Positions 16,121 to 33,575 of a stretch of DNA of 64,000 nucleotides are shown here, piece after piece. How positions within the stretch are numbered: position 1 is the first letter of the stretch; each line of letters begins with the position of its first letter. A model generated the notes under the pieces. That model made no database searches and was not told the origin of the DNA. It worked only from the letters and a program-made list of their open reading frames with translations. The position numbers were made by a program, and so were the translations under genes. The DNA comes from Mobula hypostoma (taxonomy: Eukaryota), in NCBI RefSeq assembly GCF_963921235.1, contig NC_086097.1, positions 117,182,001 through 117,246,000 of the forward strand, given 5' to 3'.

Positions 16121-18350
16121 CTTCTCGTAGAATCATTGGAAAGTACAGCTCAGAAACAACCCTTCGGCCCATCTAGTCTATGCTGAACCATTGAAGTGGT
16201 CTAGTCCCATTGACCTGCACTGGGACATGGCTCTCCAGACGCCTGCCATCCATGCACCGATCTCAACTTCTCTTAAACAGGGAAGTCAAGCTCGCATGCA
16301 CCACTTGCACTGGCAACTCCTTCCAACAAATAAACCAATACAGATAAATACATAACATTAGCTTATGTACTGTACATAGACTGGTGATGATATATGGAGT
16401 GATGCTAACTCTGCTGGCTTATCACCCAGTGCAAAATAACTATGACAAGACAGGTACCATTAGTTCCTCTTGAATAACCTAATAAGCAACAACCTATTTC
16501 TGGGTTGCTCTGCCCCTTTTCTATTCGAGCTGACCTGTCTCCCAGCCAAGATACTATTTTAAATATTTCCATTGTTCTGCATGCTCCTCTTGACTGATGA
16601 TGAGTCTGCAGCTTGGTCAGGGCTGCCATTAGTTTCCTCCTCATCTTCAGTTCACTTTATGCTCTGGAGTCCAATCAAATTAGAGTCCAAGTAGGGATCC
16701 CTTTTCAAAGTTCAATATTCAATGTAAATTTATTCTCGATGTATGTACGGTATGTACGGCACTTGAGATTCATTTTCTTGCAGGCATTTAAAAAAATTCA
16801 AAGGAATTTTATGAAAAAGCTATGTGTAAGCAGAGCACTTTCAGAGCAATGTCCTCTGTTCAAAGTATTGCACCTAACATAGAATCTGAAAACCATTGAT
16901 TGAAGTGATACAGATTCAGCACAGTACAGTATAAAATTGTTAATGGGCAAATGTAGCGTAGTTTGGGATTACAGTCAGTCAAATATGGAAAACTAACAGA
17001 TGATTCATGGCCCAGGTGCAGGTCGATGGGACAAGGAATGATTAGAGTTCTGCACAGACTAGACGGGGCGCAGGGCCTGTTTCTGTGTTGAGGGCTCTGC
17101 GGTTCTATGACTCTGCTGCATTGAGGTGTGGAACTAGACAGGGAATCAATGTAGCACCTACTTCATCTGGTCAGGCAATTCAGAAAAAGGAAACACAAAT
17201 TAAAAATTCTATGTTCTATCAAATTGCTGTTAGTCACAAATAATTTGAAGAAAAAGTCTTTACAGGTAATAATTTAATCAACTGAAGCTCTGACAGAGAA
17301 TGGTAGATTGTAGATAAAAATTGTGAAAATCATGGCAAGAAAATTAAGGGTAAAGGTGCTAAAATCTTTACTCATTTTCCTCTTGTACTTAACACACCTT
17401 ACCTGGATCCATACCACACCTCACCTGGAACCACCTGTTGCTGACCACACCTTGCTTCAGCCCTTACCTCCACTCTTGTATATTGGCCATCCCCCCTCTA
17501 TTTGTCAGTCCAGATGAAGGGACTCTACCCAAAGTATCAGCTGTCCATTTCCCTCCTGTAGGAGCCATGCATTCTGTGTTGTGCATTAATTATGTTTATT
17601 ATGGTAACTCGTCACATTAGTGGCGTCGTAAAAGCAAAGGGAATAAATTACATAGTCATGCTTACTTTGTGGCAGATTGTAGCTTGGGACTGCAGAAGTC
17701 AAATCTTACTGACTGCTGAGGTAACACTCAATAATGCCAAATTATGTGTTTGCTGCTTGCTCTCAATGGATGGAAATGGGGAAATTGACTCTTTGGAGCA
17801 ATCGCTGGAGCTATGGGCATGTCGTGCAAGTATAACAGCTCCATCCATAGCCGCAGGCTGGAGAGAATTGTTCTGTTCAGATATTGGATCAGTTTTGCTG
17901 CTACATTTCCCTAGATGCTATCTGACCTGCTGAGTTCATCCAGCGTTTTGTGTGTTGCTTCATATTCCAGCATTTGCAGTCTCTTGTGTCTCCTCTTTTA
18001 CTACACTTTCTTGTAGTCTAGCTCTTACATTCTTAATAATCTTTTTCAAGGTGTCCTCCATGCTGGGGAAACTATTGTTCATGATAGAGCTGGCTGTGTT
18101 AACAACTTCATGCAGCTTTTACCGATTCTGTTCAGTGGCCCCTCCATACCAGATGCTGGTGCATCCAGTTAGAATGCTTCCCACGGTTGGTCTGTAAAAA
18201 CCTGTGAAAGCCTTTGGTGAGATATTACCAGGTCTCCTCAAACTCCTGATGAAATATAGCCGCTGTTGTGCCTTCTTTGTAACTGCATCGTTATATTGAA
18301 CCCAGGATAGAACCTCAGAGATATTGACGCCCAGGAACTTGAAGCTGCTC

Positions 18351-21300
18351 AGCGTGTGGTGTGTCTGAAGTGATACACATACCCATTCGCCTCCTCCCTC
18401 AACTCCACCGAGGAACCCAGACAGTCCTTCCAGGTGAGACACCTCACATGCAAGTCTGTTGTATCCACTATACCGGGCACTCCCGGTGTAGTCTCCTCCA
18501 CATTGATGGGACCTGACGTAGATTGGGGGACCGCTTTGTCAAGCATCTCAGCTCCATCTGCAAAAAGTGGAGCTTTCCGGGGGCCAACAATTTCAATTTC
18601 TATCCCCAGTTCCCTTCCAATGTGTCGGTCTGTGATCTCCTCTTCTGCCACAATGAGGCCACTCTCAGGTTGGAGAGACATCACTTCATTTACTGTCTAC
18701 TTAGCCTCTATCAGGCCTGATGGCATAAGACCATAAGACCATAAGACAAAGGAGCAGAAGTCAGCCATTCGGCCCATCGAGTCTGCTCCGCCATTTTATC
18801 ATGAGCTGATCCATTCTCCCATTTAGTCCCACTCCCTCGCCTTCTCACCATAACCTTTGATGCCCTGGCTACTCAGATACCTATCAATCTCTGCCTTAAT
18901 TACACCCAATGACTTGGCCTCCACTGCTGCCCATGGCAACAAATTCTATAGATTCACCACCCTCTGTCTAAAAAAATTTCTTCGCATTTCTGTTCTGAAT
19001 GGGCGCCCTTCAATCCTTCAATCATGCTCTCTCGTACAAAACTCCCCAATCATGGGAAACAACTTTGCCACATCCACTCTGTCCATGCCTCTCAACATTC
19101 AAAATTTTTCTATGAGGTCTCCCCTCATTCTTCTAAGCTCCAAGGAATACAGTCCAAGAGCGGACAAACGTTCCTTATATGTTAACCCTCTCATTCCCGG
19201 AATCATTCTAGTGAATTTTCTCTGTACCCTCTCCAATGTCAGCAGATCCTTTCTTAAATAAGGAGACCAAAACTGCCCACAGTGCTCCAAGTGAGGTCTC
19301 ACCAGCGCCTTATAGAGCCTCAACATCACATCCCTGCTCCTATACTCTATTCCTCTAGAAATGAATGCTAACATTGCATTCGCCTTCTTCACTACTGACT
19401 CAACTTGGAGGTTAACTTTAAGGGTATCCTGTACGAGGACTCCCAAGTCCCGTTGCATCTCAGAACTTTGAATTCTTTCCCAATTTAAATAATAGTCTGC
19501 CCGTTTATTTTTTCTGCCAAAGTGCATAACCATACACTTTGCAACATTGTACTTCATTTGCCACTTCTCTGCCCATTCTTCCAGTCTATCCATGTCTCTC
19601 TGCAGACTCTCCGTTTCCTCAGTACTACTGGCCCCTCCACCTATCTTCATATCATCAGCAAACTTAGCCACAAAGCCATCTATTCCATAATCCAAATTAT
19701 TCATGTACAATGTAAAAAGAAGCGGCCCCAACACAGACCCCTGTGGAACACCACTGGTAACCGGCAGCCAGCCAGAATAGGATCCCTTTATTCCCACTCT
19801 CTGTTTCCTGCCAATCAGGCAACGCTCTATCCACGCATGTAACTTTCCCGTAATTCCATGGGCTCTTATCTTGTTAAGTAGCCTCATGTGTGGCACCTTG
19901 TCAAAGGCCTTCTGAAAATCCAAATATACAACATCCACTGCATCTTCCTTGTCTAGCCTACTGGTAATTTCCTCAAAAAATTGTAATAGGTTTGTCAGGC
20001 AGGATTTTCCTTTAAGGAATCCATGCTGAGTTCTGCCTATCTTGTCATATGCCTCCAGGTACTCAGTAACCATCATCCTTGATAATCGACTCCAACAACT
20101 TCCCAACCACCGATGTCAAGCTAACAGGTCTATAATTTCCTTTTTGCTTCCTTGCCCCCTTCTCAAATAGCGGAGTGACATTTGCAATCTTTCAGTCCTC
20201 CGAAACCACGCCAGAATCTATCGACTTTTGAAAGATCATCGCTAATGCCTTCGCAATCTCCACAGCTACTTCCTTCAGAACACGCGGGGGCATTCCATCT
20301 GGTCCGGGAGATTTATCTACCTTTAGACTCATTAGCTTCCTGAGTACTTTCTCTGTCGTAATTGTGACTGCGCACACTTCTCTTTCCTGCCACCCTTGAG
20401 TGTCCGGTATACTGCTGATGTCTTCCTCAGTGAAGACTGATGCAAAATACTCGTTCAGTTCCTCTGCCATCTCCTTCTCTCCCATTACAATTTCTCCAGC
20501 ATCATTTTCTATCGGTCTTATATCTACCCTCACCTGTCTTTTACTCTTTATATACTTGAAAAAGCTTTTAGTATCCTCTTTGATATTATTTGCTAGCTTC
20601 CTTTCGTAGTTAATTTTTTTCCCTCTTAATGACCTTCTTGGTTTCCTTTTGTAAGGTTTTAAAAACTTCCCAATCCTCTGTCTTCCCACAAATTTTGCTT
20701 CCTTGTATGCCCTCTCCTTTGCTTTAACTTCGGCTTTGACTTCTCGTCAACCACAGTTGCACCCTTTTCCCACTCGAAAATTTCTTCTTTTTTAGAATAT
20801 ATCTGTCTTGCACCTTCCTCACTTCTTGCATAAACTCCAGCCACTACTGCTCTGCTGTCTTTCCCGCCAGTGTCCCTTTCCAGTCAACTTTAGCCAGTTC
20901 CTCTCTCAGGCCACTGTAATCTCCTTTACTCCACTGAAATACCGACACATCAGATTTCGGCTTCTCTTTTTCAAATTTCACAGTGAACTCAATCATGTTA
21001 TGATCACTGCCTCCTAAGGGTTCCTTCACCTCAATCTCTCTAATCACCTCCAGTTCATTACACAATACCCAATCCAGTACAGCCGATCCCCTAGTGGGCC
21101 CAACAACAAGCTGCTCTAAAAAGCCATCTTGCAGACATTCTACAAATTCTCTCTCTTGAGATCCAGTGCCGATCTGATTTTCTCAATCCACTCACATGTT
21201 AAAATCCCCCACAATTATCATAACACTGCCCTTCTGACAAGCCTCTTCTATTTCCAGTTGTAATTTGTAGTTCACATCCCTGCAGCTGTTTGGAGGCCTA

Positions 21301-27496: not shown

Positions 27497-27850
27497 AGTT
27501 CAAAGTGTAATTTATCAGCAAAGTACACATGTATACTACCCTGAGATTCATTTGCTTGTGGGCATCCACAACTGTGCAAATATAGTATAGTACAAAAAGA
27601 GAAAAAAAACAACAAAATAATAATAAATAAATATTGAGAACACGAGTCGTAAAGTTCTTGAAGGATAGTCCATAGGTTGTGGAACCAGTTCAGTGTTAAG
27701 GTGAGTGAAGTTATCCCCTCTGGTTTCAAGAGCCTGATGGTTGAGCGGAAATAAATGTTCCTGAACCTGGTGCTGTGGAACTTGAGGCTCCTGTATTTCC
27801 TTCCTGATGGCAACAGTGAGAAGAGAGCGTGGCCTGGATAGTGGGGAATT
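27497..27850 (-). mobile_element. Rex1/Babar-type LINE 3' end
   Basis: LPSGRKYRSLK…TRFRNIYF…IRLL C-terminus. Recurrent 3'UTR (agttcaaagt..aatttat.a.caaagtac…ccctgagattcat) also seen near 5955, 16707, 34878, 38600 and 54335. Confidence 0.7.
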
Positions 27851-27904: not shown

Positions 27905-28345
27905 TGTCAAATACTAGAGGGGTGAAAGTTTAAAGGAGATTTATATGGCAAATTCTTTTGATAGACAGTGTTCTGTGTGCCTGGAATATGCCTCGAAGCT
28001 AAATGATAGCAAAGGTTGAAGGCATTTGACAGGCACATAAACAGGGTGGAAATAGAATGATATACAGTAGATCATGTGCAGGCAAATATAAAGTTTAGAT
28101 TGGCAGTGTAACCAATCTGAGTTTTTTACTCAGAGAGTGATTAGTGTGTGGAATGGGCTGCTGGCAATGGTGGTGGAGGCAGATACTACAGGGTCTTTTA
28201 AGAGACTTTTGGATAGGTACATGGAGTTTAGAAATATAGAGGGCTATAGGTAAACCTAGTAACTTCTAAGGTAGGGACATGTTCGGCACAACTCTGTGGG
28301 CCGAAGGGCTTGTATTGTGCTGTAGGTTTTCTATGTTTCGATGTA
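27905..28345 (+). mobile_element. Two adjacent short CR1 3'-end fragments
   Basis: Matches the 3' ends of the CR1 copies at 7183 and 24697 (ttttactcagagagtg…aatgggctg…ggcacaac..tgtgggccgaaggg…ggttttctatgtttc). Confidence 0.7.
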
Positions 28346-28696
28346 CATGTGATAAGTAGCTGTGAATCTAAATCTGAATCTGTTCGATGTTCTCTGCATA
28401 TGCTGTAATCCAATCCAAGACCTACTGAAAGGTTTGAAGACCAAATGTGTTATTTAATGCTGCCGCTGAATGCCACAAAGGGTTTTGCTGCGAAGGTCAG
28501 CACCACAGAGTGAATATCTTACCTCAGACCTCGTGGCAGGCCAGGCCCAGATCTGAGACACCTTTGACTTAGATTAGATTAGATTAGATTAGATTGACTT
28601 CAAGGTAAAACTACAGGTTCATGGCCAAGGTGGAAAAGGGGAAGGCAAGTTAATTTTTTAAACATTATTTCACATGAATGATTTTCATTATTGATG

Positions 28697-29562
28697 TGTA
28701 AGGTGAAGGGCTAGCACTATCCCTCAGCCGAAAGCCACAGGCACTGTGTCAGTTATCGATTGGCTCATTTGAAGAATGCTGCAGTCCTTCGTTTGTCTGC
28801 TTTTGGTGCCGTTGTCTGGCTTCCGCCATCAAAGCACCACTAGTGCACAAATAAAGTGTGCGTGGGGCTCTTCTCTCTCTTGCTTTGAGGCTCAACATGT
28901 TGCTGGGATTGTGGAAAGACTGGAAGTATGCTGCAAAGAGAGGGACCATGCGTACACTCAGATAAGTTTTTGTGTAACTTGAATATTTTAGTGAACATTT
29001 TAGTGTTTGTCCATGTTTTGTTAATAAACAGTTAAAATACTCACCTGTAGTTGGTGTCTTCTGGCCCATTTCCTGTCTGGTTGCATCACTGCCTGGTATG
29101 GGAACTGTAGCTCCCTTAATTGCAGGACTCTGTAGAGAGTGATGTGGACAGCACAGCTTATCTGTAGTTCTGAACTTCCCACTATTCAGGGCATTTAGAG
29201 AGAATTTAGAGAGACAAGTGTAAGAAAAGGACCCGAAGGATTATTCGGGACCCAAGTCATCCCAACCACAATCTATTCCAGCTGCTACCATCCGGAAAAT
29301 TGTACCACAGCATAAAAGCCAGGACCAACAGGCTCCGGGACAGCTTCTTCCACCAGGCCATCAGATTGATGAGCTCACACTGACTTGAGTGTACTCTGTA
29401 TTACATTGACTGTTCTATTTATTATAAATTATTATAATTACTATCATTGCACATTGCTCATTTAGATGGAATGTAATGTAAAGATTATTACGCCACATGT
29501 ATGTGAAGGATGTAAGAAATAAAAGTCAATTCAATTCAGTTCAGATCTGCTTCTGTGCATCA
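28697..29562 (+). repeat. 5' LTR (28697-29070 plus about 29541-29562), interrupted by a LINE
   Basis: Aligns end to end with 31539-31930 (e.g. agttatcga.tggc.cat.t.aagaatgctgcag, gcttccgccatca.ag, tgtgtaacttgaat.ttttagtg, aataaa..gttaaaatact). Starts TGTA and ends GCATCA. Confidence 0.85.
29071..29540 (+). mobile_element. Rex1/Babar-type LINE 3' fragment inserted in U5 of the 5' LTR
   Basis: GCITAWYGNC…LQRV…DPSHP…LLPSG…RTNRLRDSFFHQAIRL. AATAAA followed by an (AATTC)n tail. Absent from the 3' LTR. Confidence 0.8.
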
Positions 29563-29564
29563 GT

Positions 29565-29582
29565 CGACATCACAAACAGGAT
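29565..29582 (+). promoter_or_regulatory. Decayed primer-binding site, tRNA-Ser(CGA)-like
   Basis: CGACATCACAAACAGGAT lies 2 nt after the LTR end. Compared with TGGCGTCACGAACAGGAT (complement of a vertebrate tRNA-Ser-CGA 3' end, recalled from memory) it matches 14/18. All four mismatches are transitions, two at CpGs. Confidence 0.65.
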
Positions 29583-29601
29583 TTGTTAATGGAACATTTG
29601 G

Positions 29602-29931
29602 ATGGCGAGTAAGGATATTTGGCTCAATATTGAGGATAGGGAGGAGAGGTCAGAGGAGAGTCTGCAATTTCCCTTTGAAATGATCGCCTTCCCCCTCATG
29701 TAACAGAGACAGTACAGGCTAGACCATGTGTTGATATACCCATTGGGGGCTTCAGCCCATGGCCCCTCCACACCCCACGGGACAGGATGAGGATGAAGAA
29801 CGTGGAGTGGATAGCACAATAGCCCCCTGAGGTGGAAGCATAAGAAACTGGCGGAACTGAGGGATAGATATAGACAAAAGCCAGAGGAGCCTCTGTCCTC
29901 TTGGCGAGTGAGAATTTGGGATGCGGGGGAT
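29602..29931 (+). pseudogene. gag: ERV gag N-terminal fragment (class III-like)
   Basis: ATG at 29602. After frameshifts reads KLAELRDRYRQKPEEPLSSWRVRIWDAG, matching the EL….RQ(K/R)PGE….W..R.WD.G motif of ERV-L/ERV-S Gag. Confidence 0.7.
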
Positions 29932-31500
29932 GCTGGAGAAATAGTCTCTACAACACATTCTTGTGGATGGTGTATGAATATGCAAATCGCACTAACATTT
30001 TGGATTGCTGGATATGTATAAAGACTCCAGCTCAAGCTGCAGAAGGGGTTTTGCTAATACCAATTCCCTTTGATGAAGAGGTGAAGGACTGATAGAGGAA
30101 CATCCAGCTTCTCTGGAATTCACATTCCGTTTTGGGGAAAATGCAGGGGTTTGGGTTGGAGTAGTCCATTCCAAACAAACTTGCCTGATAGTATGACAAT
30201 GGTCATAAGGAACTTGAGCCTCAGTGTAAACCCTGGTGGAGTAAGTGCTTTGAGGGCTGTATTTCTCTGCTTATAATTCACTTTTTTTTATTTAATTGAG
30301 ATATAGTGCAGAGTAAACCCATTCGACCCTTCGAGCCACACTGTCCAGCAACCCCCGATTCAACCCTCACCTACGGTAATCATGGGACAATTTACAATGA
30401 CCAACTAACCTCCAAACTGGTATGATTTGGACAGTGAGTGGAAACCAGAGCGTCCAAAGGAAACCCACTGGGTTACGGGGAGAACAAATAACCCATTAGG
30501 TCATGGGGAGAACGTACAACCCACACAGTCACGGGGAGAACATACAACCCACTGGGTCACGGGAGAATGTACAACCCACTGGGTCACGGGGAGAACGTAC
30601 AAACTCTTACAGGCAGTGGTGGGAATTGAACTGGGGTTGCCGGTACTGTTAAGTGTGGTGTTATCCACTACACCACCGTGCCACCCAAAGGTCTTGGCAC
30701 TGAGAATAATTTCACAGCCAACATGAAAGGAAAGTGTCGTTGGTGTAGGCGACATGATGAACACAGTTCTGGTCCAAATGTGAGCAGGAACATTATCCTG
30801 GGATGACCGTATCTACACCAGATGATACTGTGAAGGGAGGCACTCCCTGGTCACTGAATGGGACATACTGGATATGTGGCTCCCGCGCCTGACCATGGCT
30901 CCCCATGAGTGGCATGGCTGCTTCTATCTGGGATATGTCTTTCCACACATAGATGATCTTAGTGTTCTGGATGAGCACGCTGCTCATGATGGTCGGTGTG
31001 GTAAGAGGAAGAAAGAGGTTGAATGTTAGCCTTTCCCATTTGTGTATGGCCAGGCTGTTCTGGGAAATGATAGTTCTGGCCTCCACGATGGAGATGCTGG
31101 TCAATGAGATGGCCATGGCCTCCCAACAGATAGAAGATGCGCTTTGCCAAAATAATGGACATTCAGACAGCTGTGTTGTAGGTTTGACTGGTGTTAGACT
31201 ATCTAGTTGAAGAAAAGGACAGCACCTGTGCTGTTATTAGCCGAGAGTGATGCATCCAATATTCTGCCTGAGTTGGGGAACATTACTAAGCTGGTTGGCC
31301 ACATCTGACTGTTGATGAATAATATTTGGAAAGTGGGGGACCAGTTTGATAGCTACTGTACTCTGGGGCGGCAAGGGAGGCTGGTGGCCTTTTGGGAACT
31401 AGCAGGCTGTGGTAAAATACATAGTGACTATTGGCCTTCTGGTACTGGGTATCGTAGTTTGATGTCTTACGTGTCCATGGGGATTGCGCTAGCCTGCAGA
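29932..31500 (+). pseudogene. env: ERV env (gamma-type), disrupted and interrupted by a SINE
   Basis: NTFLWMVYEYANRTNILDCWIC (CXXC at 30006-30017). LNGTYWICGSRA*PWLP/EWHGCFYLGYVFP. Basic cleavage site RGRKR at about 31003-31018. AVL*V*LVLDYLVEEKDSTCAVISRE*C (ISD plus CX6CC, 31170-31253). Hydrophobic VVKYIVTIGLLVLGIVV at about 31408-31460. Confidence 0.85.
30290..30690 (-). mobile_element. V-domain SINE inserted in env, with an internal 28-bp tandem expansion
   Basis: Minus strand starts gggtggcacggtggtgtagtggataac and has B box GGTTCAATTCCC-like cagttcaattccc. Five copies of ACCCACTGGGTCACGGGGAGAACGTACA at 30462-30601. Confidence 0.8.
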
Positions 31501-31538
31501 CCAGGTATTACGGTGCATGTCTTTTGAGGAGTGAAATA

Positions 31539-31930
31539 TATACTGTGAAGGCTTAACACTATCTGCCAGTCGAAAGCTGCTGGCACCATTTAGTTATCGA
31601 CTGGCCCATGTAAAGAATGCTGCAGCCCTTCCATTGCCTGCTTTTGGCACCACAGTGCTAGCTTCCGCCATCAGAGTACCAGTAGCGTATAAATACACTG
31701 TGTGTGAGGCTCTGCTCAGTCTCACTTCAGGGGCTCACCATGAGCAGTGCCGTGCAGCGATCGGAAGTGTGATGCAGATAGAGGGCCTGTGTGCACACTT
31801 AAATAACTGTGTGTAACTTGAATGTTTTAGTGTTTTGCCTTTGTTTTGGTAATAAATTGTTAAAATACTAACTCGTAGTTGTTGTCTTCTGTCCCATTTA
31901 TTGAATCTGTGAATTTGCTTCCTTGCAACA
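31539..31930 (+). repeat. 3' LTR
   Basis: Homologous to the 5' LTR. Preceded by PPT-like GAGGAGTGAAA. Contains TATAAATA (31688) and AATAAA (31851). Ends TGCAACA and is followed by TGTTG. Confidence 0.85.
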
Positions 31931-32349
31931 TGTTGGCTTTTAGCTTGCTTCTCATTATTTGCGACACTTTCTAGACTGTTGACTTCAATTGCAATAGTCC
32001 TGTAATGCCTCTACTTACAATAATATTAAAAATTAACAAAAGATAATCAGAGACTGTCTCTTGGTATCAAAAGTCAATTGCAGCTTTTGCAGCCAACAAT
32101 GACCTCTCTTCCCTTCCTGATGATTTTGGGCCCTCGTACTGACGGAGAGGTGCACTGTGGGACATGACTTATTCACTATGCCATTCAATGATTTGCATGC
32201 AGACCACACTGCTGGATACTGGGATGCAGAGAATTGGTCCACCATGTTCGGGCAACATGAGTTGCCATGGATGGTCATTCCAGGAAGGGGAATTGGGCAA
32301 GTACGATCTGACCAGATAATTGAAGATTTCTGCAATTTCAGTCAATAAG

Positions 32350-33575
32350 CTCTGCAGCTGGATGCCTGACTTTCTTACTTGAAACCACAGTCAGTGTAGA
32401 TGGGACAGAACACCCTGCTGACAATCGTCACCAGCGCACCTCAAGAATATGTGCTTAACCTACTGCTCTAGATTGATATGGTCCATTCCATCATGGGTAA
32501 AGCCCTCCCCACCATTGAGCACATCTACACTGAACAGTGTCACAGAAAAGCAGCATCTATCATCAGGGACACCCTCCCCCCACCCTAGCCATGCTCTCTT
32601 CTCACTGCTGCCAACAAGAAGAAGGTACAGGAGCCTCAGGACCCACACCACCAGGCTCAGGAATAGTTATTACCAATCCACCATCAGGCTCTTGAACTAA
32701 AGGGGATAATTTCACTTGCCCTATCACTGAAATGATATGGACATAGTTTCAAGGACTCTTTATCTATGTTCTCGATACTTATTGCTTTTTATTTATTATT
32801 ATTATTACTTCTCTCTTTTTGTACATGCACAGTTTGTTGTCTTTTGCACACTGGTTGATCACCCAAATTGGTGCTGACTTTCACTGATTCCATTGTGGCT
32901 CTTATTCTATTATGTATTTATTGAGTATGCCTGCAAGAAAATAAATCTCAGGGTTCTGTGTGGTGACGTATATGTCCTTGGATAATAAATTTACTTTGAA
33001 TTCTACAACCATGACTGTGTGATTAGACGCAGAGCAAGAACCATCTATAAATTTGCCGATGACACAACAGTTGTCAGCGAAATCTCTGATGGTGTTGAGA
33101 AGGTATGCAGGAGTGAGATAGACTAGTGGCTTTACTGGTATCACAATGATAACATTGCACACAATGTCAGAAAGACCAATGAATTGATTGTGCACTTCAG
33201 AAAGGGGAATTTGAGGAAGCACACACCAGTTTCTCATCAGAAATGCAAAGGGTGAGCAGTTTCATGTTTCTGGGTGTCAACATGAAGATCTATCCTGGGC
33301 CCAACACACTAATGAAATTACGAAGGAGGCATATCAGTAGCTATACTTCATTGGAGCTTGAGGAGATTTGGAATGTCACCAAAGACTCTATCACACTTCT
33401 ACAGATGGATCACGGAGAGCATTCTAACTGGTTACATCAGCGTCTGTTCAGAGGGATCACTACACAGGATCAGAAAAATTGCAAAGGGTTATATACTCAA
33501 CCAGCTCCATTATCAGCAGAAGCCTCCCCACCATTGAGGACATCTTCAAAAGTCAATGCTTCAAAAAGAGATTAA
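32350..33575 (+). mobile_element. Degenerate Rex1/Babar-type LINE fragments
   Basis: HPSHALFSLLPTRRRYRSLRTHTTRLRNSYYQSTIRLLN plus 3'UTR. A second piece has aaatttgccgatgacacaacagttgtc (KFADDTTVV) and VSSFMFLGVN. Confidence 0.7.

Follow-up and report, generated by a model that had tools for sequence, protein, structure and literature searches.

Can a retrovirus that has no pol gene, only a scrap of gag and a shattered envelope gene still be recognized in the genome of a ray, and to which of the known retroviral classes would it belong? The question is raised by positions 28697..31930, + strand, of a 64,000-nt stretch of the Mobula hypostoma genome (NC_086097.1:117,182,001-117,246,000; hereafter the window, in which all coordinates are given). 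A preliminary description, made from the letters of the sequence, had proposed a hidden endogenous retrovirus (ERV) here; the provirus is real, and the description had read it largely correctly. We conclude with good confidence that the element is a dead, pol-less provirus fossil which combines a Gag fragment of class III (ERV-L/ERV-S) type with a gamma-type env, and which likely stems from a single ancient integration into the germ line of a ray ancestor. It has paired long terminal repeats (LTRs), class III residues in the major homology region (MHR) of Gag, a near-complete but broken env, no room for pol and two nested repeats, and the insertion is common to a second species.

A provirus with a broken gamma-type envelope

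The element is bounded by two diverged direct repeats, which had been noted before and whose alignment to each other proved significant. The 5' LTR (28697..29562, +) comprises 393 bp of LTR sequence split by a long interspersed nuclear element (LINE), and the 3' LTR (31539..31930, +) comprises 392 bp. Using blastn, 28703-29071 and 31545-31899 were 73% identical over 371 columns (E 4e-55), with a local score of 230 compared to a maximum of 28 in 200 shuffles, and the match resumes past the insert over the last 17 bases of both copies (29546-29562 vs 31914-31930). The outer ends read TGT (28697) and ACA (31930), while the inner ends have decayed. AATAAA is found at corresponding positions in both LTRs (29023 and 31851), and the 3' copy also contains TATAAA at 31688. 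Comparison of the flanks gave the pentamers TGATG (28692..28696) and TGTTG (31931..31935) as the likely left and right copies of a 5-bp target-site duplication (TSD). Both are present as originally reported, but they agree at only 4/5 bases (chance of 4/5 or better 0.017), compared to 1/4 when the flanks are read at four bases and 2/6 when read at six.

Two bases past the 5' LTR lies a decayed 18-mer resembling a primer-binding site (PBS; 29565..29582, +), and a decayed 13-mer resembling a polypurine tract (PPT), with 11 purines, precedes the 3' LTR (31526..31538, +); the positions of both were seen directly. Without its two nested inserts the element measures ~2.36 kb, of which 1.57 kb lies between the LTRs. 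The order on the + strand is PBS (29565), gag (29848), env (29952-31477) and PPT (31526), and pol is absent. Every protein motif quoted in the preliminary description was found in frames of the element.

Most of the remaining coding sequence is env, which is near-whole in extent and dead. Its first part (29952..30281, +) corresponds to the N-terminal part of the surface subunit (SU), carries CWIC at 30006-30017 and matches residues 28-71 of a Pristis pectinata protein (XP_051893589.1, P0008) at 52% identity (E 1.9e-9, calculated within the window). The second part (30687..31477, +) contains the C-terminal part of SU, a basic cleavage site and the transmembrane subunit (TM), including a heptad region, an immunosuppressive domain (ISD), a CX6CC motif with a stop and a membrane anchor, and is broken by 6-8 frameshifts and 7-9 stops. 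Within it, GTYWICG is located at ~30860, RGRKR at 31004-31018, the ISD at ~31160-31205, the CX6CC remnant at 31227-31253 and the hydrophobic anchor at 31418-31459. Homology extends from 29952 (residue 28 of the Pristis protein, after the likely signal peptide) to ~31477 (residue 410 of 421). Production of viral proteins by the element is now impossible, and we claim no host function for it.

When one env frame was compared to 1.84 billion proteins using phmmer, two matches had E <= 0.001, namely a protein of Hypanus sabinus (XP_059826944.1, P0007; E 1.6e-11) and the Pristis protein (E 2.2e-4). Both are TLV_coat proteins and both are from batoids, in agreement with the cartilaginous-fish host suspected at the outset. 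Using the Pristis protein as query, we obtained 29 proteins from 2911 candidates, and 13 of its 20 relatives with a species name were from sharks or rays. A frameshift-aware comparison of 29 homologues to the window placed the Pristis and Hypanus proteins in the top two positions, a ranking biased by the recovery of this pair with the window itself, the other homologues having been retrieved via the Pristis protein. Scores for the Pristis protein were 123 on the N-terminal part and 288 on the downstream part (maxima of 50 and 48 in 30 shuffles each). The Hypanus protein scored 363 on the downstream part, over which it was identical at 109/230 aligned residues and the Pristis protein at 82/216. 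A profile built from env homologues (A1) matched three frames of the window (iE 2e-10, 6e-6 and 2e-3), and CX6CC was present in 25 of the 27 homologues bearing an ISD. The gamma-type env that had been proposed from CXXC, ISD, CX6CC and anchor motifs is thus supported by its TLV_coat homologues, with CX6CC surviving as a remnant that contains a stop. The Hypanus and Pristis env-like proteins are the sequences closest to the env of the element; their frames are open there and shattered here.

Several further features of this env family were observed. Four rays (Hypanus, Pristis, and Hemitrygon and Narcine among P0010 and P0016) carry annotated env-like frames of 325-493 amino acids (aa) that belong to it, and env relatives are labelled 'PABLB member 1 Env-like' by NCBI. 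All four ray proteins are among the 9 of 21 aligned env homologues in which the first heptad region (A1 columns 570-590) is seven residues longer than in the others, in XtERV-S of African frogs and in HERV-S of primates. The env of the element resembles this long form in sequence, but its own length is ambiguous through a frameshift. Scanning metagenomes for env relatives yielded seven loci from 197 candidate stretches; in viral contigs, no env relative was confirmed. Two of the seven (L001:142-4689 and L002:142-4670) each contain an epsilon-like gag frame preceded, ~1.5 kb upstream and in the same orientation, by a gamma-type env frame, an arrangement that may represent a tandem or permuted assembly through an LTR, or an env-first gene order.

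The Gag remnant and the class of the element

Past the PBS, 29583..29847 (+) consists of leader and/or decayed gag and is followed by a capsid remnant of Gag (29848..29928, +), which corresponds to the Gag motif of the preliminary description and has a class III-type MHR at 29869-29928. Gag comparisons were made by eye against published alignments (PMC4724089, supplement 3; PMC8278194, Fig. S6). Over 29848-29928, identity was 13/27 to HERV-S Gag and 11/27 to HERV-L Gag, both as reconstructed in PMC4724089. In the MHR, identity was 11/20 to a bullfrog ERV, 9/20 to HERV-L and 9/20 to MuERV-L, and the element agrees at five of the seven columns that are invariant across the seven class III rows of Fig. 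S6. Four residues (W12, W17, D18 and G20) occur in 7/7 class III rows and 0/16 other rows of that figure, and the element has all four, which supports the class III type assigned to the motif. Across all six frames, the 64-kb window contains the four-residue pattern just once, at the expected slot and on the + strand. Based on 300 random sequences from a dinucleotide model, its chance is 0.07 per 64 kb, which corresponds to ~2e-4 for the interval from PBS to env.

Because the end of the MHR (29928) adjoins the start of env homology (29952), the element has lost the remaining gag, the entire pro-pol region and the signal peptide of env, with the deletion junction at 29929..29951 (+). These junction bases could be read as both gag and env, as after a template switch at a short shared stretch, but they fit either gene and that reading is unproven. 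A second deletion probably lies upstream of the MHR, as suggested by a PBS-to-MHR spacing of 286 nt here compared to ~870 in XtERV-S, in which a 158-nt leader is followed by 237 codons before an MHR at residue 238 (PMC8278194). The stretch 29583..29847 would then be ~0.6 kb shorter than its XtERV-S counterpart.

Together, the MHR, the termini and the suggestive TSD of this element without a reverse transcriptase (RT) suggest membership in class III. A 5-bp TSD, put forward earlier as a class III mark, and TGT…ACA ends are both marks of this class according to PMC8278194. Within class III, the lineage may be ERV-S-like, as proposed, or ERV-L-like or SnRV-like.

Several points weigh against this reading. 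The element has no RT, by which class III is defined. The Gag evidence amounts to 27 residues without a database match: Pfam was blank on the 68-residue frame that holds the piece, a PDB sequence search with two single frames of the element returned nothing, a degenerate Gag pattern had 0 matches in viral contigs, and homologue searches with the piece found none among 38 and 11 candidates, which is weak evidence. Raw identity over the 20-residue MHR discriminates weakly (6-11/20 for class III rows compared to 7/20 for PERV-C and GALV, by eye), and two of the seven class III-invariant columns are unmatched. The TSD agreement is suggestive only. The PBS-like 18-mer is present where it had been reported but does not start with TGG. 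It agrees at 14/18 letters with the presumed 3' end of a vertebrate tRNA-Ser(CGA), for which a text search found no printed source, and tRNA-Ser is a putative primer. Against rows of table S6 of PMC4724089, compared by eye, the 18-mer matched 9/18 letters of the Ser type and 10/18 of the Trp type, and no tRNA genes or Rfam matches were found in the 64-kb window. For env, direct Pfam scans of six single frames with stops read as X detected 0 families, so its identity rests on homologues; of the Gag and Env model searches envisaged in the preliminary description, the single-frame ones were blank, while env was found by frameshift-aware comparison and the A1 profile. Lastly, none of the seven related metagenome loci was linked to a class III Gag, had the class III MHR pattern or resembled the LTR of the element, and two of them, L001 and L002 on teleost-like contigs, were linked to epsilon-like Gags, which have another MHR type, unlike the element.

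The pairing of a class III Gag with such an envelope has precedents. The envelope of HERV-S belongs to class I, with PRIMA41 and PABL as relatives, which confirms the comparison to HERV-S drawn earlier, and every class III envelope detected in the same study clustered with class I (Vargiu et al. 2016, PMC4724089). HERV-S/ERV-S also provides the best full Gag match, but its host is a primate, and the env of the element is closest to batoid, not mammalian, proteins. XtERV-S (Yedavalli et al. 2021, PMC8278194) combines class III gag-pol with a class I TM, a Ser primer, a 5-bp TSD, TGT/ACA ends and 19 deleted copies. The element resembles it in the class III-type MHR, in CWIC near the SU N-terminus, in ISD and CX6CC within a short env (441 aa in XtERV-S), in its TGT…ACA ends and likely 5-bp TSD (4/5 in the element), and in the occurrence of internally deleted copies; a Ser primer, putative in the element, may be shared as well. 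XtERV-S, however, is intact with identical 705-bp LTRs, whereas the element is dead with 392-bp LTRs that are 23% apart, lacks pol, retains env and has lost most of gag. ERV-L and MuERV-L have the same MHR type and a 5-bp TSD, but ERV-L has no env and its primer is mostly Leu or Met (PMC4724089). ERV-SA.a-Ppe joins a class III pol to a class I env in an anamniote, as the element joins a class III-type Gag to one; it is classed as SnRV-related by Pol.

Age, copies and alternative origins

Parts of 29580-30280 were present in 9 of 15 sequencing runs, four of them possibly from the source, four from organism B (one study) and one from organism C. Run X5 of organism B contains three contigs (28316-29100, 29522-30406 and 30690-32500) with 11, 22 and 27 differences, or 1.7% overall. 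They bridge both LTR-flank junctions (~98% identity) and the left edge of the short interspersed nuclear element (SINE) nested in env; the LINE edges are crossed by 29 and ~24 letters, below the 31-letter mark. Because both LTR-flank junctions are bridged in organism B, the provirus is older than the split between the source (A) and B. Organism C (run X9) contributed one 185-base piece over the gag remnant with three differences, which is too little for an orthology claim. No RNA runs were found among those of the 15 that hold the element, and the short pieces in run X10 are uninformative on expression.

The LTRs are 76.6% identical over 376 columns (53 transitions and 35 transversions), giving a Kimura two-parameter (K2P) distance of 0.287 +/- 0.033, or 0.271 without CpG sites. 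This is ~16x the A-B distance and bears out the great age that had been supposed. Ages of 65, 144 and 287 million years are obtained at 2.2e-9, 1e-9 and 0.5e-9 per site per year, the last rate being assumed in PMC10699275. At the 2.2e-10 that PMC4422223 assumes for sharks, the age would be ~650 million years, which is impossible; therefore, either this rate is inapplicable here or the LTR distance is inflated. We rejected absolute dating of the element as unreliable, with a range of 65-287 million years that depends on the rate.

In the history that we favour, a class III retrovirus with a covalently linked, class I gamma-type envelope, similar to XtERV-S or HERV-S, would have reached the germ line via that envelope. 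A host tRNA, likely tRNA-Ser, would have served as its primer, and integration would have duplicated 5 bp of the target. Two internal deletions would have removed ~5-6 kb of an ~8-kb genome, most simply after integration or, alternatively, during reverse transcription with a helper virus. A LINE and a SINE would then have inserted, followed by neutral decay. The anatomy is observed, whereas we infer how infection took place, which primer was used and when the deletions arose.

The same structure could instead have arisen in a non-autonomous family, in which one gag-env deletion event gave rise to a short element that multiplied with the aid of a helper virus, in the style of MaLR, Harlequin or deleted XtERV-S copies. 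MaLR is a precedent for class III elements without pol. What the element has kept (PBS, PPT, LTRs and nearly all of env) and what it has lost (the enzymes) would suit such a family, and 11 of the 19 deleted XtERV-S copies are structurally alike (PMC8278194). The same genome also contains further env-like contigs in run X1, 10 differing at 30811 and 3 at 30007. A second copy of the gag-env junction, however, was found in no contig, and LTR bins reached only ~2-10x single-copy depth, although this contig test is weak, since its 80% cut-off misses siblings as diverged as the element's own LTRs (77%). We consider this origin unlikely, though a serious contender.

A different question is whether the parent belonged to ERV-S/L proper or to the SnRV-related class III branch known in cartilaginous fish (CmiERV lineage I and ERV-SA.a-Ppe). 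SnRV-like ERVs are the class III-type lineage of the elephant shark (PMC4422223), and ERV-SA.a-Ppe itself combines a class III pol with a gamma-type env (Chen et al., bioRxiv 10.1101/2021.11.23.469661). Its suffix 'Ppe' may stand for Pristis pectinata, the source of the best full-length env relative. Against an SnRV-related parent, which we judge rather improbable but worth keeping in view, is the closeness of the MHR to ERV-L/ERV-S rows (bullfrog ERV and HERV-S, as above), a comparison that amounts to no real exclusion given that the Fig. S6 panel has no SnRV Gag row. Both this parentage and the non-autonomous family are compatible with much of the reading that we prefer.

It is highly improbable that the element is a genomic chimera, in which a class III left half and a class I right half were joined by deletion or ectopic recombination and no virus with this gag-env pair existed. 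In its favour, the link between gag and env is visible only across a deletion, and in a lineage that evolves slowly 0.29 is a very high LTR divergence. Nonetheless, homology between the LTRs covers their full length, which places both halves in one LTR family; the flanks agree at 4/5 bases; and class III ERVs that bear an env generally show this combination (PMC4724089). It is hardly credible that the element is a Gypsy element or an epsilon-like ERV of class I whose Gag motif arose by chance: related envs in L001 and L002 are linked to epsilon-like Gag and no database search recognized the Gag piece, but the chance of the motif in its slot is ~2e-4, the MHR is of class III type and the flanks match at just 1/4 when read at the 4-bp TSD of class I (PMC11905727, Table 1). 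A Gypsy origin was rejected, as a retroviral env is present.

Nested repeats, surroundings and significance

The two inserts indicated in the preliminary description are real, with edges shifted slightly from 29071-29540 and 30290-30690 to 29072-29544 and 30282-30686. The first (29072..29544, +) is a high-copy LINE 3' end with a microsatellite-like tail inside the 5' LTR, where ~13 LTR bases are gone at the insertion site. In tblastx, LINE-like frames elsewhere in the window aligned to it with E values down to 2.5e-13, while Pfam was blank on its two pieces. The second (30282..30686, -) is a tRNA-derived SINE with a head on the minus strand resembling boxes A and B and related pieces at several other sites in the window (best E 8e-21); it resembles the elasmobranch HE1/V-SINE kind. 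A 28-bp unit is repeated five times within it (30462-30602), and part of this array is passed over in most SINE-family contigs, so that the expansion looks local. Both repeats are very high-copy, with summed contig depths of ~1e4 to 1e6 in run X1; at the LINE, depth was 1.5e5-9e5 compared to 10-140 in bins that contain only the element.

Beyond the element, the window between 4000 and 28000 contains stacked remnants of LINE reverse transcriptases, mostly on the minus strand, which produce a strong negative GC skew. A LINE-like frame at 18122-18538 (-) matches Pfam PF09004 ALKBH8_N (E 3.9e-8), a model that likely also captures a C-terminal segment of LINEs. Inverted arms of ~160 bases (27686-27845 and 32576-32734; 80% complementary) flank the provirus at a distance; they lie outside the element and represent one LINE end present twice, in opposite orientations.

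HERV-S, XtERV-S and ERV-SA.a-Ppe are known examples of class III gag-pol joined to a class I env; what may be new here is the host group, together with the likely great age. The clade to which class III ERVs belong infects every major vertebrate lineage (PMC6001957). A review lists HERVS/L-like elements for tetrapods and only SnRV-like and epsilon-like elements for cartilaginous fish (PMC4977317). Both of the latter lineages are found in the elephant shark (PMC4422223), and the class III panel of PMC8278194 is without cartilaginous fish. ERVs with gamma-type Env are described from six cartilaginous fish by Chen et al., whose survey covered amphibians and fish and reports the pairing of class III pol with such an env. 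No published description of an ERV-S/L-type element from a ray or shark was found in a search that left most subscription papers and the supplements of Chen et al. outside its scope. The suggestion that the element may be uncharacterised would apply to its host group; its architecture was already known from frogs and mammals.

On its own, a dead locus of known architecture changes little. The element nevertheless supplies an LTR and env probe for relatives that bear pol, and a gamma-type env together with an ERV-S/L-type capsid signature in a ray would broaden the range of hosts and offer a calibration point of great age. We know of no infectious counterpart of ERV-L/ERV-S elements. We raise tentatively, as a possibility that is on the whole doubtful, that the element dates from the Mesozoic and is the fossil of a retrovirus from the true ERV-S/ERV-L clade, in a cartilaginous fish, the clade so far being reported from tetrapods. 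If this is true, class III gag-pol with a gamma-type env would be an ancient and stable type of retrovirus, also marine; no series of separate, land-based envelope captures would be needed, and its descendants would survive as the open env frames of present-day rays.

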